Source of the DNA: a virus
Taxonomy: Duplodnaviria > Heunggongvirae > Uroviricota > Caudoviricetes
Direction: 5' to 3' (one strand)
IMG/VR virus record: IMGVR_UViG_2703718818_000001
Location: 1 to 18,526 of that record
DNA length: 18,526 nucleotides
A program made the translations under genes and the position numbers. The notes beneath the pieces were generated by a model that had not been told where the DNA came from, ran no database searches, and worked only from the letters and a program-made list of their open reading frames with translations. The stretch's first letter is position 1, and each line of letters begins with the position of its first letter. Shown here piece after piece: positions 6,252 through 18,526 of the stretch.

Positions 6252-6925
6252 GATTCCTCTCCTTTACCGGCTGCGGCGGCGATACGAAAAAGTTTAATGT
6301 CGCCGCTGTCTGAGTTCTGCTTACTCCAGATAAGTGACGTTTCTCGCCCGCGCTCGTTGATATGCATGAGATTTCTTTCGTCTGTAAAGCATGCAGGGAT
6401 GAAAGCTACAGGGAGTGGATAGAGGGCAACTGCATCATCACCCCATTGCTCAACTGCATATTTCTCATCGGTTGTGAACCTCGACATGAATGATGTGACG
6501 TTAGCATTCCTCATCCATGCAACTGGCTTAACGTCCCGCGCCTGCAGCTCAGCAATCCGCTTCTCTGCTGCTTCCAGCTCAACACGCAGCTTCCCTACCG
6601 TTAGCGCAATATCCTCGTTCTCCTGGTCGCGGCGTTTGATGTATTGCTGGTTTCTTTCCCGTTCATCCAGCAGCGCCAGCACGGTAGCTGGATTGGCTGC
6701 GGCGATGAATTCAGCATTGGCCTGCTGTTCCATTTGGAAATCTTCATCGAAACCGCTTTCAGGATGCGCTCCTTCAATTCTGCAAATGGGAATATATCCA
6801 GCAACTTCACGATGAATTAGCGCATCATCACCATCAAATCGTCCCTCTCCATATTCGAGCGACCACTCGCCACACGTTGCTTTTTCTGCCTTAGCACGCA
6901 ATGCCTGATAGTCAATCTTGCTCAC
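6248..6925 (-). CDS. Ead/Ea22-like protein (paralog 1)
   Basis: 225 aa. GTG start at 6925 preceded by GGAGG-CAACCA. N-terminal IDYQALRAKAEKATCGEW and NAEFIAAANPATVLALLDERE motifs are shared with the adjacent paralog. Confidence 0.6.
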   Translation of the reverse strand: MSKIDYQALRAKAEKATCGEWSLEYGEGRFDGDDALIHREVAGYIPICRIEGAHPESGFDEDFQMEQQANAEFIAAANPATVLALLDERERNQQYIKRRDQENEDIALTVGKLRVELEAAEKRIAELQARDVKPVAWMRNANVTSFMSRFTTDEKYAVEQWGDDAVALYPLPVAFIPACFTDERNLMHINERGRETSLIWSKQNSDSGDIKLFRIAAAAGKGEES

Positions 6926-7485
6926 TGGTTGCCTCCTTTGCGAAGCTCAGCGGCGAAGGCTACTGCGTGATCATGATGTTCAAGTGTGTATGCACACTCC
7001 GCAAACATCTCCACGCCCTGCGCTCGTACTTCAGCCAGGAAAGCATCGGTGGCAGGCATATTTCCTGTTGCTTTCATGGCCTCCAAGATAACCAGAACGC
7101 CATCTCGCCCAACCTCCTCAGCGATAACCTCGGTGTTGTCGCCAACAACATCGCAGAATGCCTGAACTGCTTTACGAGCAAGTGCATTCTCCGCCGCCAG
7201 CGCCACAAGATTAGCTTCCAGCTCTGCAATACGTTTGCTTTGGGCTTCCCGTTCATCCAGCAGTGCCTGTACTACTTCAGGGTTGAAAGCTGCAATAAAT
7301 TCTGCGTTGTTCTCTGCATTTTTCTGGTCATCAAAGCCAGGCCATTTGATAATGTCTCCGCAACGTTCATCCCCCGGCGTATGCACCGCATATGTATCAG
7401 TGCCCGGCGAAATGAATGCGACCCATTCGCCCTGGGTTGCCAGTTTTGCTATCTCACGTAGCGTCTGATAATTAATTTTTCTCAC
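6922..7485 (-). CDS. Ead/Ea22-like protein (paralog 2)
   Basis: Preferred start is the GTG at 7485, with the same GGAGG-CAACCA-GTGAG context as paralog 1 (the ORF track's longest start is 7512). Shares INYQTLREIAKLATQGEW and NAEFIAAFNPEVVQALLDERE. Confidence 0.6.
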   Translation of the reverse strand: MRKINYQTLREIAKLATQGEWVAFISPGTDTYAVHTPGDERCGDIIKWPGFDDQKNAENNAEFIAAFNPEVVQALLDEREAQSKRIAELEANLVALAAENALARKAVQAFCDVVGDNTEVIAEEVGRDGVLVILEAMKATGNMPATDAFLAEVRAQGVEMFAECAYTLEHHDHAVAFAAELRKGGNQ

Positions 7486-7777
7486 TGGTTGCCTCCTGGA
7501 AAATAACCGCATGTCCCAGTTTCTCCGCCAGTGCCAGTTCTGCCTTAGCGCCTGCCGACCGCTGCCAGCCTTTCAGCATGTAAATCGCATCCACGCAGCG
7601 TATCATCGCCATGCAAATATCCATGTAGTGTGGCTGTGTCAGTCCGTCCGGAAGTACTGCCGGGTTTAAAACGGTATGCCCTTCCCGTTTCAGTGCTTCT
7701 TCCGCCCTGTGAAACGCCTCACGGTTGAAATTTTCATATCCCGTCATCGGACCGGCGATATAAATTCTCACCCTCAC
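7472..7777 (-). CDS. DUF4406-family protein (nucleoside 2-deoxyribosyltransferase-like fold)
   Basis: 101 aa; N-terminal RIYIAGPMTG motif typical of DUF4406. GTG start at 7777 with AGGAGGG 7 nt upstream, overlapping the upstream stop. Confidence 0.65.
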   Translation of the reverse strand: MRVRIYIAGPMTGYENFNREAFHRAEEALKREGHTVLNPAVLPDGLTQPHYMDICMAMIRCVDAIYMLKGWQRSAGAKAELALAEKLGHAVIFQEATSEKN

Positions 7778-8055
7778 GCCTGAACCCTCCTGTCGAAATA
7801 AACGTAGTTATTCACTGCGCCCAACTTCATCCCAAACTTTTCGGCAATTTCCCGTCGGGGTACGCCACGCTGATGCAGTTGCCGCGCCAGCTCAATATCA
7901 CGCTGTGAACATTTGGCTGACTGGTGATAATCACCCCGTAACATCATGCAGATACCCAGTTCCCGCGCTTTCGTCCTGACGGCAGCCCCACTACGGCCAA
8001 TCAGACTGCCGATGCTTTCGACTGTCATCGTTCCCGCACACTGCCGGAGTATCAT
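7774..8055 (-). CDS. Hypothetical small protein with possible HTH
   Basis: The ORF track extends to 8178, but that N-terminal extension overlaps the upstream gene and is low-complexity. The in-frame ATG at 8055 gives a 93-aa product MILRQCAGTMTVESIGSLIGRSGAAVRTKARELG... Start is ambiguous (8055, 8028 or 8178). Confidence 0.4.
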   Translation of the reverse strand: MILRQCAGTMTVESIGSLIGRSGAAVRTKARELGICMMLRGDYHQSAKCSQRDIELARQLHQRGVPRREIAEKFGMKLGAVNNYVYFDRRVQA

Positions 8056-8087
8056 AATTTCCGCCCAGCGCCACTTCTTCCAGCCAC

Positions 8088-8849
8088 TCACCGCAGCAGC
8101 TCTCTGGTGGCGGTAATATCCCGGAGAATATCCCTGTGTTTGTTCAGTTCCCGCAGCGCGGCACAGACTCGCTCCCACTTCTGAACATCACTTTTCGCCC
8201 TGCGCAGCGCCAGGTTTGCCCTGCACAGGGACAGAAAAATCAGCTCATCTGCTTGCGTTTCGGTAAACGATGGCAACGACTGCACAATGTCCGCCACTGT
8301 TTCTGTTTTAATATCTTCCTGTGTTGCAGATTCCTGTACTGGTAACGCAACACCTGCTGGCTGAGGAAAGGCCTTACCATCATTTTCCGTTACCGGCACG
8401 GCTTTCGGCTCTGCTGGTAAATTATCGCCCGGCATGCAGTAACGAAATTTACCGTTCTGATTTACGCGTGCCAGGCGTCCCGTTGCGGTTACCACCGCCA
8501 ACGTGGAAGCAACCTTGCGAATGCTAACACCGAACTTATCCGCCAGTTCCTCACACGTTTTAGCCCCCTCCTGACCGATAAACTCAATCATCATGTCTGC
8601 GGTAACTTTTTGTTCGACCTCCCCGGTCAGCACATCCGGTACTTCAGACTGTTCTGGCTGCTCTTCGGTTACCCCGGATTCACCTTCGCCAGCCAGAAAC
8701 CAGATGTGACCCGCTTTATCAACAACGCCATTTCTTTTGAGTTCCCACAGTTCGTTGAGAACCTCTTCACGACTGATATCAAGCCGCTCAGCCAGTCCAA
8801 CAGAGCTGGCTTTTCCCATTGCTTTCAGTGCGTCAAAAACGGTTTCCAT
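8088..8849 (-). CDS. Hypothetical phage protein with N-terminal winged-helix-like domain (recalled as DUF1627-like)
   Basis: 253 aa. ATG at 8849 with AGGAGG 8 nt upstream. N-terminal [45 protein letters not shown]. Family name not verified. Confidence 0.55.
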
Positions 8850-8882
8850 TAAAATTTCCTCCTACAAAATCGCTTCTCAGAT

Positions 8883-9545
8883 TCAAATAAAACCAGCTGC
8901 CTTCCGGCGTTCGTATTCCTGTTTCAGCCATTCAATTGGCGTTGGCCCTTTCGGGTGTTTCGCCCCTTCCAGTTGTCGTCGCACTGGCGGAACACTCATC
9001 CCGTTACCAACATGCTTTGCCCATTTCGTCAGTTGCCGTTCCGCAAGTCGTTTTAACTCACCCTGCGTCATCTGGCGCTCAATCCCTCTGGTACGCATTT
9101 CGAGGCAGATGTGGTACAGCACAGGCTGTGGCCACGGGTATTTATCACTCCCGTCGTATCGCCAGGATTCATTGCGCCAGCGCCGGTACTCTTCCATCAC
9201 GGCATCCACCGTAAGACCAAATGGATTTGCCCCACTCTCCGAAATCAGTGCAACAAACTCAGCCAGGTCCGGGGGCCACGTTTCACCCGCCCGGCAGCGG
9301 TCCATGCACTGACGGCAGACCAGCCGGATTTGCTGTTCAGTCATCGCGCCAATCTGGGCAATCCAGAGCTTCGAAGGTGCGGCCCCGTTCTTCTGTGTCC
9401 AGCGGTTCGAATACACCTCCCCCATAAGCTCCCACAGCTTCCAGGCCGTTTCCGTTGCTGATAAATCCGTTTTCACGTTCCCACTGTTCGCGTGCTGCCC
9501 GGATTTCCTGAACTGCCCGTGATGCCGTGCCACCTGATGCTGCAT
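8883..9545 (-). CDS. Replication protein P-like (DnaB helicase loader)
   Basis: 220 aa. The C-terminal two-thirds align by eye with lambda P (GLTVDAVMEEYRRWRNESWRYDGSDKYPWPQPVLYHICLE versus lambda GLPNVSELVDMVYEYCRKRGLYPDAESYPWKSNAHYWLVTNL). ATG at 9545 has AAGGGGG 6 nt upstream. An alternative ATG at 9344 would cut the overlap with the O-like gene to 8 nt. Confidence 0.7.
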   Translation of the reverse strand: MQHQVARHHGQFRKSGQHANSGNVKTDLSATETAWKLWELMGEVYSNRWTQKNGAAPSKLWIAQIGAMTEQQIRLVCRQCMDRCRAGETWPPDLAEFVALISESGANPFGLTVDAVMEEYRRWRNESWRYDGSDKYPWPQPVLYHICLEMRTRGIERQMTQGELKRLAERQLTKWAKHVGNGMSVPPVRRQLEGAKHPKGPTPIEWLKQEYERRKAAGFI

Positions 9546-10347
9546 GGCTTACCCCCTTGCTGACTGGTTTTACCTGTGCCCTGACGTGCTGCACGTGGCG
9601 GGCAAATTTCTGCTCCCACTGAATCTGCGTGAAAACCTTCCCCTCCGCCATCCAGTAATCCCGGAATGCGGCAAGCTCTGCAGGTGTAAATTCCGGCTCA
9701 GGCAGAGCCATACCCCACACTGCTGCCCGTTGTCGAAAATCCGGCGACGGCTGCCAGACAGTGGTCATCGAAAATTTCCCGATCGGTTCGCTCAGGCCGT
9801 CCAGGTATTCAGGTTCGGCTGTCTGCAACGGCGCACCATGCGACTCACTGGTCGGAATACTCTCGCGTTCACGCACGTTATGTGTGGGGTTTAATTCTTT
9901 TAGATCTGTATCTTTATTAGTTGCTTTTGTGTTTGCGTCATGTTCAAACACAACACCAACATTTGTTTGAACACCTGTTAAATCTCTCTCTTGTTTTGTT
10001 TGAACATATACTTCCTTTCTGCTTCTTCTGGCCTGAACAGATGCTTTTCCGGCGGCTGATTTTTTGGTCAATTTTTCCCTGACTGATGCCAGATCTTCCT
10101 CAATCCGAAGATGCACCCATTCATCGCCGTTATCGCAAAAAAACTCCCGCAAGGATGGTTCCACATCAGCCCATCGCTCGTTAGTCAGACGGGAAATTTT
10201 TGCCAGCCTGTTTTTAGGTATTGGTTTCCCTGTTTGCCAGTAATTGAACATCAGCAACAAATACGCACCGTGCTCCTCTGCGGACAAATGCATGGTGTCA
10301 GCCAGGTAATCAGCTATGTACAGTTGCATGTATGGTAATGCGGCCAT
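9337..10347 (-). CDS. Replication initiation protein, O-like / DUF1376 (YdaU-like)
   Basis: Preferred ATG at 10347 with GAGG 5 nt upstream (ORF track start at 10401 is a TTG). N-terminal MAALPYMQLYIADYLADTMHLSAEEHGAYLLLMFNYWQTGKPIP is typical of DUF1376. The 3' end runs 209 nt out of frame over the P-like ORF. Confidence 0.65.
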   Translation of the reverse strand: MAALPYMQLYIADYLADTMHLSAEEHGAYLLLMFNYWQTGKPIPKNRLAKISRLTNERWADVEPSLREFFCDNGDEWVHLRIEEDLASVREKLTKKSAAGKASVQARRSRKEVYVQTKQERDLTGVQTNVGVVFEHDANTKATNKDTDLKELNPTHNVRERESIPTSESHGAPLQTAEPEYLDGLSEPIGKFSMTTVWQPSPDFRQRAAVWGMALPEPEFTPAELAAFRDYWMAEGKVFTQIQWEQKFARHVQHVRAQVKPVSKGVSHAASGGTASRAVQEIRAAREQWERENGFISNGNGLEAVGAYGGGVFEPLDTEERGRTFEALDCPDWRDD

Positions 10348-10433
10348 AATTGCCTCATCTTGTGACGAACCATCCTCTGGTGATATTCTGTGATTCCCCA
10401 ATCAACAGAATCAGCAGGGGGCTGGCATAAATA

Positions 10434-10871
10434 TCAATGCACCACAACAGACTCGCCGGATGACCCGCCGTCGCTGAAATACGCTTTCCGGTAAACGGCC
10501 TGGACAGCATCATCATGTGCATCAATTGCCGTGCTCAACGCTTCCTGCGCCGCCAGTAATGCACGGCGCTCAACAGTGTCAAAAATACTGAGGTGATAAC
10601 GCAGTTCACGCGGAAGAACAGTCAGGATAGCCGGAATTAGTGCCTGAATTTTTTCAACAGCATCAGGCGTATCCTTTTCAAGCCAGCGAAAAATATTTTG
10701 TATATTCAATCCAATACCCTCTGTCGTAGAGGTGTCATGCATTGGTGGATAAGTCATTTCAAGCTCAAAATATGCTGTCGCTATATCATCAGCGATTTTT
10801 TTGCGCCCTACCCTCGGATAAAGCAGCCACGCATTCATCGCCATGCGGATGTGCTCATGCTTGATTTTCAT
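10434..10871 (-). CDS. YdaT-like protein (cII-position regulator of Rac-type immunity regions)
   Basis: 145 aa beginning MKIKHEHI, which I recall as typical of YdaT. ATG overlaps the stop of the cro-like gene (ATGA). Confidence 0.65.
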   Translation of the reverse strand: MKIKHEHIRMAMNAWLLYPRVGRKKIADDIATAYFELEMTYPPMHDTSTTEGIGLNIQNIFRWLEKDTPDAVEKIQALIPAILTVLPRELRYHLSIFDTVERRALLAAQEALSTAIDAHDDAVQAVYRKAYFSDGGSSGESVVVH

Positions 10872-11128
10872 GAATCAACTCCCGCCGCTGCTTGTGCGTT
10901 AGCCTGATACTCAACAGGTAAACCATCGGTTGGATTAGGGTATTTATCAGGGCGCAATTCATGCGGAGTTACTCCCCAGTCAAGCGCCTCACATGCTGGT
11001 ATAACCTCCTCCGCTGGCACTCGTTTTTTAAACCACCCACTTATGGTTTGCGGTGTTTTACCAAGACGACGCCCTAATTCTGATTGGCTCATTATTGACA
11101 GGATTTTCACTTGAGTACTTTTTTGCAT
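10868..11128 (-). CDS. Cro/YdaS-like HTH regulator
   Basis: 86 aa with HTH segment SQSELGRRLGKTPQTISGW. ATG at 11128 with GGAGGG 4 nt upstream. Divergent from the repressor gene. Confidence 0.7.
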   Translation of the reverse strand: MQKSTQVKILSIMSQSELGRRLGKTPQTISGWFKKRVPAEEVIPACEALDWGVTPHELRPDKYPNPTDGLPVEYQANAQAAAGVDS

Positions 11129-11254
11129 GTTTCCCTCCGAACTTTACGATGACACCGATGATTACAAATTTAATTTTAAATTTCAACTTCTATTTGTAAT
11201 GCCACTTATCAATTTTTTCTGTAGGATCGCGGAACTAGTTTACGAGGGGTGGTG
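11129..11254. promoter_or_regulatory. Immunity-region divergent promoter/operator region (OR-like)
   Basis: 126-bp AT-rich intergenic region between divergent HTH genes. Inverted half-sites TTACAAAT (11162-11169) and ATTTGTAA (11192-11199); imperfect palindrome AAATTTAA-TT-TTAAATTT (11166-11183). Confidence 0.55.
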
Positions 11255-11647
11255 ATGATCTTTGTAAAACGCCTTCAGCAGGTGTTGCAGGAATTGAATA
11301 TAAACCAGTCAGAGCTGGGAAGACGTCTTGGTGTAAAACCCCAATCCGTGCAAGGTTGGTTGAAAGGCGTGATGCCAAGAATGGATAAACTGGAAAAATT
11401 AGCAGAGCTCTCACAACATCCCGTCCATTGGTTCTTTATGGAAGAAGAAACTCTCGGCGATAAAATGGCTGTATCCAGTAATGACAACCAACCGCAACTT
11501 ACAGAACAACAACGAAAAATCATATCGCTTTTAGATGAGTTACCTCAAAGCGACGCAGAGCAGATCATTCGTGATATGGAGCAAAAACGCGATTTCTATA
11601 AACGGAAACTTGAAGAGTTACTGCGGCAGAAAAACAAAACTGCCTGA
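11255..11647 (+). CDS. CI/RacR-like prophage repressor: HTH protein with no peptidase (S24) domain
   Basis: 130 aa from the ATG at 11255 (GAGGGG 5 nt upstream). HTH segment NQSELGRRLGVKPQSVQGW closely matches the cro-like protein's HTH. C-terminal half is charged and coiled-coil-like, with no Ser-Lys protease motifs. Confidence 0.7.
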   Translation: MIFVKRLQQVLQELNINQSELGRRLGVKPQSVQGWLKGVMPRMDKLEKLAELSQHPVHWFFMEEETLGDKMAVSSNDNQPQLTEQQRKIISLLDELPQSDAEQIIRDMEQKRDFYKRKLEELLRQKNKTA

Positions 11648-11677
11648 TGCATTCCTTTTCTGGAACGAGCATCAGGC
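11630..11677 (-). terminator. Hairpin (GCCTGATGC / GCATCAGGC, 18-nt loop) with a U-rich tail on the minus strand; candidate higBA terminator overlapping the repressor stop codon
   Basis: 9-bp inverted repeat at 11642-11650 and 11669-11677; plus-strand A-rich run at 11630-11641. Confidence 0.35.
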
Positions 11678-11693
11678 AAATGACTAGCAGATT

Positions 11694-12053
11694 TTATAAT
11701 CCAACCAGGCTTTCCAGGGGGATACCAAATTGATTATGAAGACGGCGAATCATTGGTAACGTAAGGCTTCTGGTACCATTCAACACCTCATAAACCCGAT
11801 TTTTTTTCCCAATTGCGGGTTCCAAATCTTTCACAGTCAGCCCCTGCTGTTCCATGCGAAATCTTATAGCTTCAATTGGGGATGGTGGCTCAATGGGATA
11901 ATGTTTTTTTTCATATTCCTCTATTAGCAAACACATCACCTCAAAAAAATCCCCCTCAGGCGTGTCAATTTCGGGCTCATTGTCGAACATGGGTTCAACA
12001 GCACGCAACGCGGCTTCATAATCTTGCTCTGTACGAATAGGTTTGATGTTCAT
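11694..12053 (-). CDS. higA: HigA-like antitoxin (C-terminal XRE-type HTH)
   Basis: 119 aa. C-terminal GLTVKDLEPAIGKKNRVYEVLNGTRSLTLPMIRRLHNQFGIP is an XRE-type HTH. ATG lies 2 nt after the stop of the upstream toxin gene, giving the toxin-first order typical of HigBA. Confidence 0.75.
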   Translation of the reverse strand: MNIKPIRTEQDYEAALRAVEPMFDNEPEIDTPEGDFFEVMCLLIEEYEKKHYPIEPPSPIEAIRFRMEQQGLTVKDLEPAIGKKNRVYEVLNGTRSLTLPMIRRLHNQFGIPLESLVGL

Positions 12054-12055
12054 GC

Positions 12056-12358
12056 TTACTCCAGTTCGATGGTATCAGCATCAATAGCATCGTATTCCTT
12101 GTGGTTTCCGATGAATTTAACAAATACCCATCCTCGCTGATACGCAATTGCAACAATTAAACGGTAATGATTACCTTTTATGTTGAATACCACGCGCCGG
12201 TTTTTCAATATACTGGCCGTTCGGTATTGTGCCTTAATGTCTGCTGGGCTTTTCCAGTCAGCTTTTGCCGCCTCATCCACCCATGCCCTTAGCGGTTGTT
12301 CTGCATCAGGATTCTCCGCCCAAAAATCCCTGAGTGTTTTAACTGAGATAATCTTCAT
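12056..12358 (-). CDS. higB: HigB-like toxin (RelE/ParE superfamily mRNA interferase)
   Basis: 100 aa from the ATG at 12358. C-terminal ...NIKGNHYRLIVAIAYQRGWVFVKFIGNHKEYD matches the HigB pattern as I recall it. The ORF track's 240-aa version (to 12778) is an upstream open-frame extension. Confidence 0.75.
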   Translation of the reverse strand: MKIISVKTLRDFWAENPDAEQPLRAWVDEAAKADWKSPADIKAQYRTASILKNRRVVFNIKGNHYRLIVAIAYQRGWVFVKFIGNHKEYDAIDADTIELE

Positions 12359-12369
12359 AACTGTATAGT

Positions 12370-12386
12370 AGTCCCATTTTGGGACT
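12370..12386. promoter_or_regulatory. Perfect inverted repeat AGTCCCA-TTT-TGGGACT, 12-28 nt upstream of the higB start; candidate HigA operator
   Basis: 7-bp arms at 12370-12376 and 12380-12386. Confidence 0.4.
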
Positions 12387-12401
12387 GATGCAACAGCTCG
12401 C

Positions 12402-12456
12402 AATTGCAAATTTAATAATAAACATGTTGACCAGTTAAATTTTAATTTGTAAATTG
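12402..12456 (+). promoter_or_regulatory. pL-like early-left promoter (TTGACC-17 nt-TAAATT) flanked by operator-like repeats related to those in the cI/cro region
   Basis: -35 at 12427-12432, -10 at 12450-12455. AATTGCAAATTTAAT (12402-12416) differs by one base from ATTACAAATTTAAT in the OR-like region, and ATTTGTAA recurs at 12445-12452. Confidence 0.5.
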
Positions 12457-12632
12457 TATCCATAAACCCACCCCGCCCCACAGAACGCAGGGCAATACTT
12501 CGAGTTACCCGGCAGTGGTCAGGGGTTAAGTAGCCAGCCTGAGGCGTATGAACATGACGGCGGGGATTACGTTTAACTATGCAGCAGGTTTTTTGTTCCG
12601 CTACCCCGGCGTTAAGGGGAAATGAGGTCAAC

Positions 12633-12785
12633 ATGGATACGCTCAATCTTGGCAACAACGAATCTCTGGTATGCGGTGTGTTCCCTAACCAGGACGGCAC
12701 GTTTACCGCGATGACGTATACCAAAAGTAAAAAGTTTAAAACCGAAGCTGGCGCGCGTCGCTGGTTAGCCAGAAACACTAACTGA
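12633..12785 (+). CDS. Small hypothetical protein (50 aa), first ORF of the early-left transcript; possibly YdaF/DUF1391-like
   Basis: ATG at 12633 with GAGG 5 nt upstream (the ORF track start at 12579 is a longer in-frame extension). Translation MDTLNLGNNESLVCGVFPNQDGTFTAMTYTKSKKFKTEAGARRWLARNTN. Family name is a weak recollection. Confidence 0.4.
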   Translation: MDTLNLGNNESLVCGVFPNQDGTFTAMTYTKSKKFKTEAGARRWLARNTN

Positions 12786-12822
12786 TTAGCACCAGTAAAA
12801 ACAGGTTGCCACTGGTTAATTT

Positions 12823-12842
12823 ACCCTGAAAAGTCAGGGTAT
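12823..12842 (+). other. Perfect hairpin TACCCTGA-AAAG-TCAGGGTA with no U tract; boxB-like RNA element or processing site
   Basis: 8-bp arms with a 4-nt loop, about 40 nt after the 50-aa ORF stop. The boxB comparison is speculative. Confidence 0.3.
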
Positions 12843-13579
12843 AACACGAAAGCGCACGGCGAAGCTCTTTCCCTTAGAAGGCTTGTCGTTAGATTTCTTC
12901 GAACGTGCGCTTCCGGTTGTGGCAATCCGCGAAATGGCGCGGCGGTAAGTATGGCTGGGGTTTCCTCCATTGCTCCAGAAAATGCACCGGGTTGTCAGGT
13001 TGACCATACGATTAAGTGACAGCCCCGCCACAATACCCATGTGTAGTCTTTGGTGGCATCAGTTCTACTCCGTGACTGCTCTGCCACCCTTTTTAAAGTG
13101 AATTTTGTGATGCGGTGAATGCGGCTAAGCGCACGCGGAACAGTTAAAACCGTAAAGTGGTCTTTTACGGGGCGTAACGGGCATACTTCTGTATTCCGGC
13201 GTTAATTGTTAACTGGTTAACGTCACCTGGAGGCACCAGGCACTGCATCGACAAAGTTCACTTCGGTGATGAAAGGTAAGAGAAAATGTTGAATGTAGCT
13301 ATTGAAAACCAGAACGGGTGGAATTATAGTGCACCTGCACCTCATAAAGCGGGTGCCGGGATTGCTACCCCGATGTTCATCATGGCGCATAACCGCGCTC
13401 AGGCGGTTTTTTTATGCGTAATGCACAGCCACATTCAGATTATGGTGGGGCGTGCAGGGCAGCCGCAAGGCTGGCCGGGTTCCATGATGACCGGTTGTAG
13501 CAACCCTGTGCGTCTCACCACCCATGAGATTGCTACCTCCGGTGGTGAGTTAATGAAATTCATCATGGAGGCTGCCATC

Positions 13580-14137
13580 ATGGCTACTATCCCTGCCCTT
13601 TCTCACCCTGAAATTACTATCGCCAATGGGCGTGCTGTTACATCCTCTTTAGCTGTTGCCGAGTATTTCCGGAAACCACACAAAGATGTACTGGCAAAAA
13701 TTTCACGTCTAGACTGTTCAGCAGAATTCACTGAGCGAAATTTTTCGCCCAGTGAATATACCGACTCAACCGGGCGCAAACTCCCTATGTACCAAATCAC
13801 CAAAAACGGCTTCGTTTTCCTGGTGATGGGCTTCACCGGCAAAAAAGCCGCTGCATTTAAAGAAGCCTACATCGCTGAGTTCGATCGCATGGAGAAAGAA
13901 CTGCGCCAGAATAACGCCCCGTCTCCCGACAAAATGATTCACGGGGACGGACGTACCCTGGTTATCCGTCTCGACGAACACGGCAATATCAAATTCACTG
14001 AAACCGTTCCTGATGGTGCAATGGTCTGCACCCTGGATACCTTCCAGTTTTATCTGGAGAAACAAGGCTGGACTCTTGTAAACCGGAGCGCAATTAAAAA
14101 TATGACTGTGGAGCAATTACTAAAAATTCATTGTTGA
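13580..14137 (+). CDS. Rha-family phage regulatory protein
   Basis: Conserved Rha-like N-terminal segment ...SSLAVAEYFRKPHKDVLAKISRL... Preferred start is the ATG at 13580 (GGAGG 8 nt upstream), with 13553 as an alternative. The ORF track's start at 13286 adds an implausible N-terminal extension. Confidence 0.7.
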   Translation: MATIPALSHPEITIANGRAVTSSLAVAEYFRKPHKDVLAKISRLDCSAEFTERNFSPSEYTDSTGRKLPMYQITKNGFVFLVMGFTGKKAAAFKEAYIAEFDRMEKELRQNNAPSPDKMIHGDGRTLVIRLDEHGNIKFTETVPDGAMVCTLDTFQFYLEKQGWTLVNRSAIKNMTVEQLLKIHC

Positions 14138-14147
14138 GGACGCGATA

Positions 14148-14336
14148 ATGGAAACGTTATTACCAAACGTTAATACGTCTGAAGGGTGTTTTGATATTGG
14201 TATTCTGCTCAGTAACCGGGAGTTTACTGAAGATGCCATTAAGATGAGAAAATATGAGCCTTATCTTCTCAATGATAATTCCATACTCTCCAGAATTGCC
14301 CTTCTTAAACTTGGTATTTTCGGAGGGCAGCAGTGA
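14148..14336 (+). CDS. Small hypothetical protein (62 aa), AT-rich by eye
   Basis: ATG at 14148 with GAGGA 7 nt upstream, 10 nt after the Rha stop. No family recognised. Confidence 0.4.
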   Translation: METLLPNVNTSEGCFDIGILLSNREFTEDAIKMRKYEPYLLNDNSILSRIALLKLGIFGGQQ

Positions 14337-14521
14337 CTTCTGCATTTGCACTGGTGATGACGGTTTTTCTTATAACGGGTGAGCCACAGAATGTGATTAC
14401 CGGAATTTATGCCAGTAAAGAATCATGCCTCCGTGCAAGAGACGAGCAAAAAATTTCTGGCGAATGCCTCCCGTTAAAAAAAGTATCGCTGTACCTGAAT
14501 AACGAAATACCGGCTGGATAA
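14333..14521 (+). CDS. Small hypothetical membrane-anchored protein (62 aa, N-terminal hydrophobic segment)
   Basis: GTG start at 14333 overlapping the upstream stop (GTGA), with GGAGGG 5 nt upstream. Hydrophobic stretch AFALVMTVFLITG near the N-terminus. Confidence 0.4.
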   Translation: MTSAFALVMTVFLITGEPQNVITGIYASKESCLRARDEQKISGECLPLKKVSLYLNNEIPAG

Positions 14522-14613
14522 TCCACCAGCCATATTAACGCCATACCCGTTGATTAAGCATGCCAGCAATGGCAGGGGTTCGTACAACCTTAAAATAGTT
14601 ATGAGGTTTATCC

Positions 14614-17052
14614 ATGAGCACTGATAAAGAAGAATTTTCGCTATATTGCGAAGCAAAAAATGACAAGGTCAGAAAACGCCTTGGGATTAAAGGAGGTTTT
14701 TACTGGACTACAGCAAAAAAATTATCTGTTGCCATCTCACGGTGCGTTGTTGCAATGGACGAGGCAGGCTACGACGCTGATGATTTCAAAAAACCTGTCC
14801 GCGTCCATTTCCCCGTTGTGAATGACCTTCCACCGGAAGGCGTGTTTGATACCGAATTCTGCAACCGCTATGAAAAAGGCGGGGAAGATGGCATCACAAT
14901 GATATTTATAGCGCCTTCCCCCTCAGTTCAGGACAAACCAGCCAGCACTGACAATACCAACGTCAATGGCGAAGACATGGCTGAGATTGAGGATAATATG
15001 CTCCTGCCGATTTCCGGTCAGGAACTGCCCATTCGCTGGCTTGCGCAACATGGCAGCGAAAAACCGGTAACGCACGTTTCACGGGAAGAACTTCAGGCAT
15101 TACATATCGCACGAGCTGAAGAACTGCCGGCTGTTACTGCCCTGGCTATTTCCCACAACACAAAGCTGCTCGACCCGCTGGAGATTCGCGACCTTCACAA
15201 ACTGGTACGCGACACAGACAAAGTTTTCCCTAATCCCGTTAATTCCAGTCTGGGGTTAATGACTGCTTTTTTCGAAGCATACCTGGACGCTGACTATACC
15301 GATCGAGGTCTGCTGACAAAAGAGTGGATGAAAGGAAATCGTGTTTCTCGCATCACCCGCACGGCTTCCGGTGCAAATGCCGGTGGCGGAAATAAAACCG
15401 ATCGTAATCCTGACTTAGTACACACCCTCGATACTCTGGATGTGGAGGCTGCAGCAGCCACACTTCCGATGGATTTTAATATTTATGAAATACCCGTGAG
15501 CGTTTATCGTCGCGCAAAAGAAATCGTCCTGAAAAAAGAAAGTCCGTTCAGGGAATGGTCCGCAGCACTTCGCGCAACCCCTGGTATCCTGGACTATTCC
15601 CGCGCAGCTATTTTTGCACTTATCCGGAGCGCCCACCCTGAGTTTTATCACTACCCGGGACGCCTTCAGGGGTATATCAATGCCAACCTGACAGAAACTG
15701 ATCACGAGAATCCCACAGCTGAAACGCTCATGGCTGCCCGGCATACACCGGAAAAAGATATCCTGGAAGAAATTAACGGCGGACTGGCTGCTGAGTGCAA
15801 AACAGAAGAAGAAAAAAATGATGAAGAAAACCCGCAACCATCTGGCGCAATGGCAGATGAACAGGCAACGGCTGAAACAATGGCAGCGGATACAGTTGAA
15901 CATCATCAGGACCCGCAGCCGCTGGATGACAAGTCACAGGTAAAAGTTACTGCTGAAGAAGTAAATAAAATTATGGAGGCAGCAGACATCAGTCGACCAG
16001 ATGCCGACAAATTGCTTGCCGCTTCTCGTGGTGAGTTTGTTGAAGGGATTAGCGACCCGAATGATTCGAAATGGGTTAAGGGGATTGAAACCTGCGATTC
16101 TGTGAACCAGAACCAGCAAGAAACGGAACAGAACGGTCAGAAAGCGGAACAAAACAGCCCAAATGCGTTACAAAACGAGCCAGAAACGAAACAACCTGAA
16201 CCAGTAGTGCAACAGGAAGAGGAAAAAGTTTGTACCGCATGCAATCAGACTGGTGGTGGTAACTGCCCTGATTGTGGCGCAGTGATGGGGGACGCAACCT
16301 ACCAGGAGACATTCAACGAAGAAAGCCAGGATGAAGCCCGGGAAAAAGATCCGGAGGAAATGGAAAGTGCCGGACTCCCGAACAAGGAGTGCACCGAAGG
16401 CGATCAACATGCCAATGGCAATAATGAAACAGGCGAGACAGCAAATCCCTTAATTAAGGTGAACGGTCATCGTGAAATCACATCCACCAGCAGGTTATGG
16501 CACCATCTGATGATTGACCTTGAAACAATGGGCAAAAATCCTGACGCACCAATAGCCTCAATAGGCGCTGTATTTTTCGATCCACAAACCGGAGAGCAGG
16601 GGCCTGAATTCAGCAAAATAATTGATATGGGTACATGTGGCGGCACTGTAGACATAAGCACCATCGAATGGTGGCTTCAACGCTCTGGCGAAGCCCGTGC
16701 CGCCATTTTAGCTGATCGAATACCGCTTGATGATGCGCTTTTACAATTACGGGAATTTATAGACGAAAACTCCGGTGAGTTTTTTGTTCAGGTCTGGGGA
16801 AATGGAGCCAACTTCGACAACGTGATTTTACGCCGTTCATATGAACGGCAGGAGATCCCCTGCCCGTGGCGTTACACCAATGATCGTGATGTAAGAACGA
16901 TTGTTGCCCTGGGGCTGGTGATGGATTTCGATGCTCGAAGTGTCATCACATTTGAGGGTGAACGCCATAATGCCCTGCACGATGCGCGTTACCAGGCAAA
17001 ATACGTTTCAGCTATCTGGCAAAAACTGTTCCCGAATCAGGCTGATTTTTAA
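14614..17052 (+). CDS. Large multidomain protein (812 aa): N-terminal region of unknown function, acidic low-complexity linker, Cys4 zinc-ribbon-like motif, C-terminal DEDDh-type 3'-5' exonuclease domain
   Basis: ATG at 14614 with GAGG upstream. DEDDh motifs: IDLETMG (residues 634-640), [10 protein letters not shown] (730-739), HNALHD (785-790). C540-x2-C543-x7-C551-x2-C554 at nt 16231-16275. E/Q/N/D-rich segment at about residues 360-535. Confidence 0.8.
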
Positions 17053-17118
17053 TGTTCAACCCATATCGCCGCCCACAAGCTATAGTGGCGGCGGTCATGC
17101 TGTAAGGCACGTGACCAC

Positions 17119-17370
17119 ATGTACGAATTAACTCTATCGCCAGCAGAAATTCAAGAGATCACGAGATACGAACGGTATACAAAACAGCAACAACAGTTAA
17201 GGTTGCACGGTATCCCATTTGTACCCGGTCCTAAAAACGAACCAATAGTTCTTCGCAGTGATGTCCCGCGCGGACTGACTGCGATACCGAAAGTATCTGA
17301 ACTGGTTTCTGCTGACCCCGATTTTGAGGCGCTGAACAATGGGAAGACCAAGAAAAAACAAAAAAGATAA
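17119..17370 (+). CDS. xis: Excisionase (lambda Xis-like)
   Basis: 83 aa. Begins MYELTL (lambda Xis begins MYLTL, recalled), with a basic C-terminal tail NNGKTKKKQKR. The 3' end overlaps the int start by 32 nt, as in lambda xis-int. Confidence 0.6.
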   Translation: MYELTLSPAEIQEITRYERYTKQQQQLRLHGIPFVPGPKNEPIVLRSDVPRGLTAIPKVSELVSADPDFEALNNGKTKKKQKR

Positions 17371-18358
17371 TGCACTACCGCCACGTGTTAGATCGAATGG
17401 TTACAGTTACGTATGGAAACCCGAAGGAAGCACAAAAACTATAGGGCTAGGAAGAGTGCGGGAAACCAGCATAGCTAAAGTCTGGCAGAATTATGAACTG
17501 GAAAAAGCAAAACGCCACAACATAATGACCGTCGCTAAATTATGGCACATGTTTATGGATTCCCCCGCATTTACAGAACTGGCCCCCAGAACCCAAAAAG
17601 ATTATCGGCAACATCAGAGGGCGTTACTGGCAGTCTTCGGAAAAGTACTGGCTGATAATGTAAAAATTGAGCAGGTAAGAATTTTCATGGATAAACGGGG
17701 GATTGAGAGCAAGACCCAGGCAAACCATGAACTGGCAAGTCTCAGTCGTGTATACGGGTGGGGATATGAGCGTGGATATGTGAAGAATAACCCATGCAAA
17801 GGAGTCAGGAAATTTACGCTTAAAGCCCGCACTGTTTACATCACAGATGAACAGTATGCGGCGATATATGCGGAAGCAATACCACAGTTACGCATTGCAA
17901 TGGAGATATCCTATCTTTGTGCGGCAAGACTCGGTGATGTGCTCGAGCTGAAATGGCAGGATATTATGGATAAAGGAATCTACATTGAGCAAAACAAGAC
18001 CGGCACCAAACAAATCAAGGAATGGTCTCCACGATTACGAACCGCGATCCAGTTAGCCAGAAATGTATCTTCAGGCACATGTGAATATGTGATCAACACA
18101 ACCAAGGGCGGGAAGGTCATAGCTAAAACGCTAAACAACTGGTGGAACCAGGCTAAACACGCAGCCGAGAAAAAATCCGGCGTCCCGTTTGGGTGCAATT
18201 TCCATGACATAAAAGCCAAAGGAATATCAGATTACGAAGGAAGCAGTCGCGACAAACAGATTTTCAGTGGACATAAAACAGAAAATCAGGTGTTGATTTA
18301 TGATCGTAAAACAAAAATCACGCCGACACTGGATTTGCCACTTGTGGTCAGCAAGTAG
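17339..18358 (+). CDS. int: Tyrosine site-specific integrase, lambda Int family
   Basis: 339 aa. N-terminal MGRPRKNKKDNALPPRVRSNGYSYVWKPEGSTKTIGLG parallels the lambda Int arm-binding domain; C-terminal ...HDIKAKG...SGHKTENQVLIYDR carries the catalytic His and Tyr region. Confidence 0.9.
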   Translation: MGRPRKNKKDNALPPRVRSNGYSYVWKPEGSTKTIGLGRVRETSIAKVWQNYELEKAKRHNIMTVAKLWHMFMDSPAFTELAPRTQKDYRQHQRALLAVFGKVLADNVKIEQVRIFMDKRGIESKTQANHELASLSRVYGWGYERGYVKNNPCKGVRKFTLKARTVYITDEQYAAIYAEAIPQLRIAMEISYLCAARLGDVLELKWQDIMDKGIYIEQNKTGTKQIKEWSPRLRTAIQLARNVSSGTCEYVINTTKGGKVIAKTLNNWWNQAKHAAEKKSGVPFGCNFHDIKAKGISDYEGSSRDKQIFSGHKTENQVLIYDRKTKITPTLDLPLVVSK

Positions 18359-18499
18359 GCAACTCAGGAAATTTTCTGGCAAAAAAGACTTGGTATACTA
18401 ACTCTGAAAGCTCCCTAACAGCCTGATTTTTCTAGGTGTTAAGTTTGGTTAATTTTTCAGCTACTTTTCGTATTGCATTGATTTTTATTTATTTTTCAT

Positions 18500-18526
18500 C
18501 GGTCTTGAAAACCGGCGACCCGAAAG
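18500..18526 (+). tRNA. 3' fragment of a tRNA-Ser(UGA)-like gene, from the anticodon stem onward, truncated by the window edge; probable attachment-site core
   Basis: CGGTCTTGAAAACCGGCGACCCGAAAG matches the anticodon stem-loop (loop CTTGAAA, anticodon TGA) and the start of the variable arm of E. coli tRNA-Ser(UGA) as I recall it. The bases immediately upstream diverge from the tRNA. Confidence 0.55.

Follow-up and report, generated by a model that had tools for sequence, protein, structure and literature searches.

The RecE/RecT pair is the workhorse of recombineering, yet the N-terminal ~600 amino acids (aa) of RecE were still "of unknown function" in a 2023 review, which places the nuclease domain at residues 564-866 (PMC11611040). 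The recombination genes of lambdoid phages more generally were surveyed by Zheng et al. (Genome Res 2025; PMC12315714), whose main text reports that 22% of enterobacterial lambdoid phages are without a Rec module, that DnaQ-like 3'-5' nucleases occur in lambdoid Rec modules, and that a "Tritos" type has a nuclease and many Chi sites but no annealase, single-stranded DNA-binding protein (SSB), or anti-RecBCD function; "RecE-2" proteins without a nuclease domain are also mentioned there. Phage Tritos, the namesake of the nuclease-only type, is a siphovirus of strain LF82 that forms plaques (Misson et al., PLoS Pathog 2023; PMC9928086). Here we analyze an 812-aa protein gene carried on an 18,526-nucleotide (nt) stretch of Caudoviricetes DNA (IMG/VR record IMGVR_UViG_2703718818_000001; the whole stretch is called the window below), a member of whose family is also present in Tritos. 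The original prediction for this gene took it that exo/bet or recE/recT fills this slot in lambdoid phages, a premise that is too strong in view of the 22% without a Rec module and the nuclease-only type reported in the main text of the survey (PMC12315714). We found that the gene joins the noncatalytic part of RecE to a nuclease domain of a different class and, as its sequence predicts, of the opposite polarity.

The gene is a single open reading frame (ORF) that begins with an ATG start codon, 8 nt downstream of a GAGG Shine-Dalgarno sequence. The ORF and its segments are as follows.

14614..17052, plus strand: the complete ORF (812 aa, one open frame), RecE-type scaffold plus DEDDh exonuclease
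14761..16455, plus strand: whole RecE-homologous noncatalytic region, aa 50-614 (BLASTP), with the swap junction at its 3' end
14764..15180, plus strand: RecE N-terminal domain PF06630 (Exonuc_VIII), aa 51-189 (Pfam E = 1.2e-34)
15301..15405, plus strand: Gly-rich, most conserved scaffold motif, aa 230-264 (invariant columns)
15694..16218, plus strand: acidic low-complexity linker, aa 361-535 (composition)
16000-16086, plus strand: conserved motif inside the acidic linker, aa 463-491 (multiple alignment)
16231..16275, plus strand: zinc-ribbon-like Cys4 motif, C540-x2-C543-x7-C551-x2-C554 (positions verified)
16279..16488, plus strand: second acidic linker across the RecE/DEDDh junction, aa 556-625 (predicted disordered)
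16501..17019, plus strand: DEDDh 3'-5' exonuclease domain PF16473, aa 630-802 (Pfam E = 9.6e-63)

The residue numbers originally assigned to the cysteines (C540, C543, C551, and C554) and to the catalytic positions (D635, E637, D735, H785, and D790) were checked and are right; the ExoI motif containing D635 and E637 reads LMIDLETMG, and the ExoIII motif containing H785 and D790 reads HNALHD. The low-complexity linker described at the same time is also real, 39% of aa 361-535 being D, E, Q, or N, with a net charge of -28. A UBA-like domain at aa 443-476 was considered and rejected (Pfam E = 0.014, below threshold).

The C-terminal domain matches PF16473 ("Rv2179c-like 3'-5' exoribonuclease") over profile positions 1-177 of 177 with a score of 211.5 bits against a cutoff of 27, well outside what chance would give, and all five catalytic residues (D635, E637, D735, H785, and D790) are invariant in 35 of 35 homologues that are 47-93% identical to the query. 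An AlphaFold2 model of aa 536-812 had a predicted local distance difference test score (pLDDT) of ~90 over the exonuclease domain, which was preceded by a disordered linker (pLDDT of <50 at model residues 23-90). When this model was compared with the PDB by Foldseek, T4 DexA came first (8KEL/8KEN; E = 9e-11), further matches being RNase T, a CRISPR-associated DnaQ domain, REXO2, and Orn (oligoribonuclease), all of them DEDDh enzymes; the Foldseek probability was 1.00 for DexA, RNase T, REXO2, and Orn. DexA was also the sole solved structure detectable by sequence (phmmer E = 2.3e-5; family profile E = 1.9e-14). It is a DNA exonuclease that takes part in the scavenging of host DNA and in the homing of introns, and its structure was solved recently (Kang et al., NAR 2025; PMC12153337). 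Phage records with domains of the PF16473 type number 729, T4-like dexA and Salmonella phage ST64B among them, and the exonuclease domain has many matches in BFVD. A PD-(D/E)XK fold for the C terminus was absent from the Pfam, profile, and Foldseek results, and PF12684, the nuclease domain of RecE, gave no match. The DEDDh assignment made in the original prediction is therefore upheld by the Pfam match, the invariant pentad, and the predicted fold, with no sign of the PD-(D/E)XK alternative. Judged by these three lines of evidence, the domain is a genuine DEDDh exonuclease of the DexA/PF16473 type, whose expected polarity is 3'-5', as opposed to 5'-3' for RecE.

Because PF16473 is named for a mycobacterial 3'-5' exoribonuclease, we also considered an enzyme that trims the 3' ends of RNA, be it the transcripts of its own operon, small RNAs (sRNAs) such as DicF, or host RNAs. 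The structural neighbors RNase T, Orn, and REXO2 do act on RNA, and the operon encodes the processed sRNAs DicF, isrK, and C4, but the processing of DicF is attributed to host RNases. Moreover, the one solved structure within reach of the family profile is that of a DNA exonuclease, whereas Rv2179c itself was not detected in the profile search at E values of up to 1, and the domain takes the place of a DNA nuclease on a scaffold derived from a DNA recombination enzyme. We regard RNA trimming as very unlikely.

That scaffold accounts for most of the protein. PF06630 ("Enterobacterial exodeoxyribonuclease VIII") matches aa 51-189 with 120 bits against a cutoff of 25, and BLASTP aligned aa 50-614 with residues 42-591 of Rac RecE at 56% identity over 576 columns. 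The homology to RecE stops at aa 614, equivalent to RecE residue 591, and its end at the DNA level lies at nt 1841 of the ORF (blastn); the RecE nuclease domain starts right after this point, Pfam placing PF12684 at 615-850. Rac RecE is thus PF06630 plus PF12684 (PDDEXK), and the window protein is PF06630 plus PF16473 (DEDDh). Consistent with this, the NCBIfam equivalog model for RecE (NF007259) was matched only over profile positions 1-602 of 877 and scored 879 bits, below its cutoff of 1269. The DNA itself is a patchwork in which the closest relative changes along the ORF: the nuclease-less "RecE" of phage PhiR5_2 at nt 1-290 (85% identity), Rac recE at nt 339-791 (88%), Gifsy-1 recE at nt 683-1145 (80%), Rac recE again at nt 1188-1841 (71%), and the phage Tritos gene at nt 1328-2439 (81.5%).

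The original prediction had seen a vague likeness to RecE in the N-terminal ~350 residues and had offered a domain-swapped RecE-like protein as one reading. The likeness is real, but it extends over ~565 aa rather than ~350, taking in the linker, the conserved linker motif, and the zinc-ribbon-like motif, and the domain-swapped reading is demonstrated by the Pfam architectures together with a junction mapped at both the protein and DNA levels. These comparisons show the gene product to be a chimera of the noncatalytic scaffold of RecE and a DexA-like DEDDh domain, exchanged exactly at the domain boundary.

Conservation within the scaffold is uneven. In a multiple alignment, the Gly-rich motif and the aa 463-491 motif were common to the RecE proteins, the latter being present in Rac RecE, Gifsy-1 RecE, Tritos/YdfE-type proteins, and PhiR5_2. 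The Cys4 motif was confined to a subset, being kept in Rac RecE, the Tritos type, locus L005, and PhiR5_2 and absent from the RecE proteins of Gifsy-1, Klebsiella, and mEp237; this segment is zinc-ribbon-like by sequence, and its model pLDDT was only ~62-65. The most conserved stretch of all RecE-type N termini is aa 230-264, with columns invariant across Escherichia, Salmonella, Klebsiella, and Enterobacter, and AlphaFold2 confidence there was low. Being strongly conserved yet apparently unstructured, the stretch is a candidate binding motif. AlphaFold2 modeling of the N-terminal 365 aa (27 homologues) gave a pLDDT of 63 and a predicted template modeling score (pTM) of 0.31, with two moderately confident subdomains (aa 5-100 and 275-360), and a Foldseek comparison of this model with the PDB returned nothing below E = 0.87.

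RecE proteins bearing PF12684, which served as controls, are each followed by RecT (Rac, Gifsy-1, Klebsiella phage, and mEp237). In the window, Pfam and PHROG scans of the neighboring genes and of the ORFs from the replication genes to the late region found no annealase, those ORFs coding for replication proteins O/P, DUF1627, Ea22-like proteins, and the like, and the inventory of the early-left region held no unassigned ORF big enough to encode one. When Rac RecT, the lambda proteins Bet, Exo, and Gam, and the nuclease domain of RecE served as tblastn queries, no matches were obtained in 83 loci (the window, its closest genome, phage Tritos, and 80 IMG/VR loci); the same queries, supplemented with the Gifsy and Klebsiella RecT proteins, gave none in 84 loci of other species (GTDB species representatives and related contigs). 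Finally, when 107 ORFs of at least 150 aa flanking the gene in 22 species were analyzed with Pfam, the 25 most frequent of 32 families held no annealase, SSB, or Gam; they included YdaT, integrase, DnaT/O, P, DUF1376, and helix-turn-helix (HTH) proteins. The claim that the nuclease has no annealase partner therefore stands, there being none adjacent and none in 167 related loci (83 + 84). With no PD-(D/E)XK domain, a score below the curated cutoff, and no RecT, the protein is, on its domain makeup and setting, outside RecE proper.

Because protein database searches gave almost only contig-end fragments of <700 aa, we took the architecture statistics from DNA loci. Intact orthologues of 805-847 aa were found in ~70 of the 80 IMG/VR loci. 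Among one-genome-per-species representatives there were ~22 long forms (685-831 aa) with RecE-type N termini, in the genera Escherichia, Enterobacter, Citrobacter, Klebsiella, Pluralibacter, Dryocola, Buttiauxella, Atlantibacter, Scandinavium, Kosakonia, and Phytobacter. The prevailing forms in Serratia, Erwinia, Pantoea, Providencia, Hafnia, Photorhabdus, Aeromonas, and others are standalone ones of ~180-196 aa. DNA for the DEDDh domain is present in 3238 of 5426 complete E. coli genomes (60%), at 6655 places and in up to seven per genome, more genomes than the 1736 of 5426 (32%) that contain the nuclease domain of Rac RecE; in 1221 complete genomes a single place covers at least 80% of the whole 2.4-kb gene. 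An identical gene occurs in E. coli strain 48, in a prophage adjoining yccA that is 98.8% identical to the window over 7010-18526, the two being mosaic elsewhere. By its architecture and distribution, the gene is a distinct RecE variant that is very common in prophages. Some metagenome bins labeled Veillonella parvula, Geobacteraceae, and Actinomycetes also hold an enterobacterial prophage with a member of the family, including one locus (L100) with an 812-aa allele whose N terminus is 91% identical to that in the window; these occurrences most likely reflect binning contamination.

The N terminus varies among E. coli copies. Most have a different first 250 aa, as in Tritos (823 aa), and are without PF06630, aa 270-812 being common to both kinds; of these, the allele found in the window is the less frequent among E. 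coli phage loci (13 of 83). K-12 ydfE, in the Qin prophage, consists of the first 255 aa of a Tritos-type 823-aa exonuclease (99% identity), cut by IS2E, which is probably why the gene has not been studied in K-12. The intQ gene downstream of ydfE in Qin is also a pseudogene. In phage PhiR5_2, a 690-aa RecE-type scaffold with no nuclease domain lies directly upstream of gam-bet-exo. The N-terminal region is matched equally well in Shigella phages 75/02 Stx and POCJ13, where the match falls at the same genome position as in PhiR5_2. Since the scaffold is found with a PD-(D/E)XK domain, with a DEDDh domain, or nuclease free beside lambda Red, it is, on this distribution, an independent module.

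Several observations raised the issue of whether the ORF might be a nonfunctional relic, an accidental fusion or a decaying pseudogene. RefSeq/PGAP annotates the identical, unbroken ORF of strain 48 (corresponding to window positions 14755-17052) as two features, a pseudogene labeled "RecE family exodeoxyribonuclease, incomplete" and an "exonuclease" of 527 aa, the K-12 allele ydfE is a pseudogene, and some IMG/VR loci carry shortened ORFs of 359-745 aa. However, the frame is open across all 812 codons, the K-12 truncation is due to an IS2 insertion, the long forms are kept across more than 10 genera, and the plaque-forming phage Tritos has an intact 823-aa allele. In addition, the ratios of nonsynonymous to synonymous substitutions (dN/dS; Nei-Gojobori method, window gene versus eight diverged copies) were 0.16-0.43 overall and within 0.03-0.45 in every segment: ~0.1-0.2 in PF06630 (about 0.11-0.16 with close alleles as the reference), 0.03-0.11 across Cys4, 0.13-0.23 in the exonuclease domain, and 0.2-0.45 in the linkers. 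Such ratios show a conserved family under purifying selection. A relic is thus extremely improbable, and the pseudogene reading of the RefSeq annotation is ruled out by the open frame, the dN/dS values, and the cross-genus conservation. The family is systematically misannotated: besides the split in strain 48, the gene caller gives only the last 239 codons of an 823-codon ORF in an Enterobacter genome. It was probably overlooked because K-12 ydfE was destroyed by IS2 and because pipelines label the gene "exonuclease VIII," split it, or call its last ~240 codons.

The gene belongs to a DicA/DicC-type repressed leftward early operon, in which it is the last before xis and int. The other features of this region are as follows.

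13038..13089, plus strand: DicF sRNA, farther upstream within this leftward early operon (Rfam RF00039; score 61 bits, gathering score 48)
13286-14137, plus strand: Ash plus Rha ORF, 283 aa, the start of the Rha ORF being doubtful
13337-13413, plus strand: isrK RNA (Rfam)
13438-13525, plus strand: C4 antisense RNA (Rfam)
14148-14336, plus strand: dicB (PF05358, E = 6e-36)
14333-14521, plus strand: ydfD-like DUF1482 gene, directly upstream of the 812-aa gene (PF07358, E = 7e-16)
17119-17370, plus strand: excisionase-like gene (DUF4224), directly downstream (Pfam; PHROG excisionase)
17339-18358, plus strand: tyrosine integrase gene (Pfam)

The order in the window is therefore DicF, isrK/C4 with the Ash/Rha ORF, dicB, the ydfD-like gene, the 812-aa gene, the excisionase-like gene, and the integrase gene, and the order DicF-dicB-ydfD-exonuclease-xis-int is identical in phage Tritos and K-12 Qin. 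In every context examined, whether the form was long or short, the gene was the last before xis/int. A search for a promoter of its own or an isolating terminator yielded only consensus-level matches, no more than in shuffled sequence. A 66-aa ORF in another frame (16931-17131, plus strand) overlaps the 3' end of the exonuclease gene and enters the gap before xis; it matched nothing in Pfam or PHROG and probably does not represent a gene. The isrK and C4 sequences lie inside or over the start of the Ash plus Rha ORF, and the isrK/C4/Rha block resembles a module of the P1 c4/antirepressor type or the Gifsy isrK type that has been inserted in the dicBF operon. Elsewhere in the window, the interval that separates the repressor gene from the leftward early operon holds, on the minus strand (11694-12778), a HigB-like toxin ORF and an HTH (HigA-like) gene, a pair that RefSeq labels HigB/HigA toxin-antitoxin in the closest genome. 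The sRNA family STnc100 is matched over its full length (168 bits) at 362-570 on the minus strand, close to the late-region end of the window.

The company of the host-directed DicF, DicB, and YdfD in an early lytic operon invites the view that the nuclease serves anti-defense or host takeover, destroying host nucleic acid that has a free 3' end. Its targets would be retron multicopy single-stranded DNA (msDNA), other single-stranded DNA made by defense systems, or nicked and broken host DNA, the last for nucleotide salvage as with DexA, whose classical role is host-DNA scavenging (PMC12153337). Phage and prophage nucleases, RecE included, degrade retron msDNA (PMC12475279). The absence of a recombination partner from the tblastn and Pfam searches of the loci fits this view as well. 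On the other hand, this view leaves unexplained why a RecE-type scaffold of ~565 aa is retained under purifying selection. Temperate lambdoid phages are not known to scavenge host DNA. Degradation of msDNA by RecE, furthermore, sets off retron toxicity instead of evading it (PMC12475279). Overall, we consider an anti-defense or takeover role unlikely, although worth keeping in mind.

The kinship with DexA, established by phmmer, profile, and Foldseek comparisons, could also point to a superinfection exclusion or defense nuclease of the HREX type, in which a DexA-like domain degrades incoming phage DNA with modified bases. An E. coli homologue of DexA carried on a plasmid, EcD, is reported to digest T4 DNA and to confer protection from this phage, and DexA homologues are reported to be common in Escherichia, Citrobacter, and Klebsiella (Kang et al.; PMC12153337). 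The operon shared with dicB, the accessory gene slot adjoining int, and the up to seven diverged copies per genome with mosaic N termini, which resemble arms-race genes, would all suit such a role. The residues implicated in DexA suit it less well, as far as an alignment that is tentative at 22-25% identity can tell: of the two residues proposed for recognition of 5-hydroxymethylcytosine (5hmC), W152 corresponds to T755, in a variable column (T/Y/C/H/W and others), and D169 corresponds to D771, which is D or G in the family, whereas D90 is retained as D707 in the long forms. D90 is the tetramerization residue of DexA and is A78 in EcD; its loss is said to spare the host (PMC12153337). Nor does expression favor a standing defense, since the gene lies in a repressed early operon without a convincing promoter of its own and the prophage genes found expressed in the LF82 lysogen did not include the Tritos exonuclease gene (PMC9928086). 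PADLOC gave only a weak, generic match to a CRISPR-associated DEDDh protein, leaving membership in a known defense system unsupported. An HREX-type role thus seems decidedly unlikely to us. An EcD primer sequence from Kang et al. had no exact match in IMG/VR, GTDB representative genomes, or complete E. coli genomes; the EcD gene is probably synthetic or from a rare strain.

The reading that we prefer takes account of the Chi sites. Where shuffles lead one to expect 0.74, the window contains six (GCTGGTGG; positions 1823, 3850, 3902, 5667, 14523, and 16484), of which four lie on the minus strand, and it fits the "Chi-rich, no anti-RecBCD" class defined in the main text of Zheng et al. (PMC12315714). 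One Chi site lies inside the exonuclease gene, and another lies between ydfD and the exonuclease gene. Because the window is Chi rich and phages of this kind are without a RecBCD inhibitor, the best reading is that the protein processes DNA ends, either in concert with host RecBCD/RecA or by exposing 5' tails that are joined without an annealase, a role that we judge to stand about an even chance of being correct. The gene would be expressed early after induction or infection from the repressor-controlled leftward operon. A part in the DNA metabolism of the lytic cycle is favored by this repressed setting, by the absence of the Tritos allele from the genes expressed in the LF82 lysogen (PMC9928086), by the kinship with the DNA exonuclease DexA, and by the presence of DnaQ-like nucleases in lambdoid Rec modules (PMC12315714). 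Its RecE-type scaffold would carry the nuclease to a target, probably double-stranded DNA ends or a host factor bound there; that the scaffold may act at DNA ends is hinted at by the finding that full-length RecE outperforms the nuclease domain alone in linear-linear recombination (PMC11611040). The DEDDh domain would then strip nucleotides from DNA 3' ends by two-metal catalysis at D635/E637/D735/D790, with H785 as the putative general base. Trimming of 3' tails or flaps could serve host-dependent recombination in either of two ways, by making ends blunt enough for RecBCD loading or by exposing complementary 5' tails that anneal without an annealase, and this route would stand in for the exo-plus-annealase systems of RecET and Red.

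A number of points weigh against such a role in recombination. The function of the long forms is deduced from their sequences. The Chi density of the window, 1 per 3.1 kb, is only modestly above the average of the E. coli chromosome. Standalone ~185-aa versions of the domain occupy the same slot without the scaffold, so that the domain can act alone; the slot adjoining int is a typical site for accessory genes; and the substrate may be RNA, as the naming of PF16473 after an exoribonuclease reminds us. Since the scaffold has no recognizable fold, its targeting to DNA ends is conjecture. According to the main text of Zheng et al., moreover, 3'-5' exonucleases usually inhibit homologous recombination, and DnaQ-type genes near int, outside the canonical Rec module, may not be recombination genes (PMC12315714).

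A bolder version of the end-processing proposal, which we put forward as doubtful though plausible, is that the scaffold (~600 aa) acts as an autonomous platform for targeting DNA ends or a host repair factor and accepts interchangeable "warheads" of opposite polarity, be it PD-(D/E)XK, DEDDh, or, where lambda Exo is encoded alongside, none at all; the DEDDh version would embody an annealase-free strategy of recombination or end processing in cooperation with RecBCD/Chi. If this were true, that strategy would be the one used by the majority of E. coli lambdoid prophages, and study of the DEDDh form would show the role of the long-mysterious RecE N terminus.

Whichever role proves correct, the gene shows the front part of RecE reused with a nuclease of predicted opposite polarity and without an annealase. 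The polarity swap on a conserved RecE scaffold, the abundance of the swapped form, and the consistent lack of an annealase should surprise specialists. The gene provides a direct experimental handle on the role of the scaffold, and it bears on how DNA ends are handled in Chi-rich lambdoid phages that have neither annealase nor Gam.

The family can already be seen in databases under generic names, and the 2025 survey of lambdoid Rec modules treats it in part; we found no paper describing the RecE-scaffold::DEDDh chimera as such. With the nuclease-only "Tritos" type of Zheng et al., the window shares the gene class, the setting, the lack of an annealase, and the richness in Chi, but the main text of that survey does not describe the fusion to a RecE scaffold or the exact domain swap (PMC12315714). 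T4 DexA, the closest solved structure, has the same fold and catalytic pentad, yet it is only 22-25% identical to the window domain, its residues proposed for 5hmC recognition are not conserved in the window family, and it is a free-standing protein of 227 aa from a virulent phage, whereas here the domain forms the C terminus of an 812-aa protein of a temperate phage. The Tritos protein TRITO_27 and full-length YdfE (PHROG 2082/20376) are 59% identical to the window protein over aa 270-812, which comprise the linker, Cys4, and DEDDh segments, and are encoded in the same operon slot, DicF-dicB-ydfD-gene-xis-int; they differ in the first ~250 aa, which are unrelated to those of the window protein and are without PF06630. 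The "RecE-2" protein of PhiR5_2 resembles it at the other end, with PF06630, the conserved motifs, Cys4, and 85% identity over the first 290 nt of the gene, but its nuclease domain is absent and gam-bet-exo comes next. RecE of the Rac and Gifsy types shares PF06630, the Gly-rich motif, the acidic linker, the ...KWVKGI motif, and, in Rac, the Cys4 motif; the genes occupy an early-left operon near xis-int in both cases, and stretches of the window DNA match Rac recE at 71-88% identity and Gifsy-1 recE at 80%. RecE and the window protein are set apart by the gene that comes after them, which is recT for RecE genes only, and by the catalytic domain itself, which is PD-(D/E)XK (PF12684) in RecE and DEDDh (PF16473) in the window protein.

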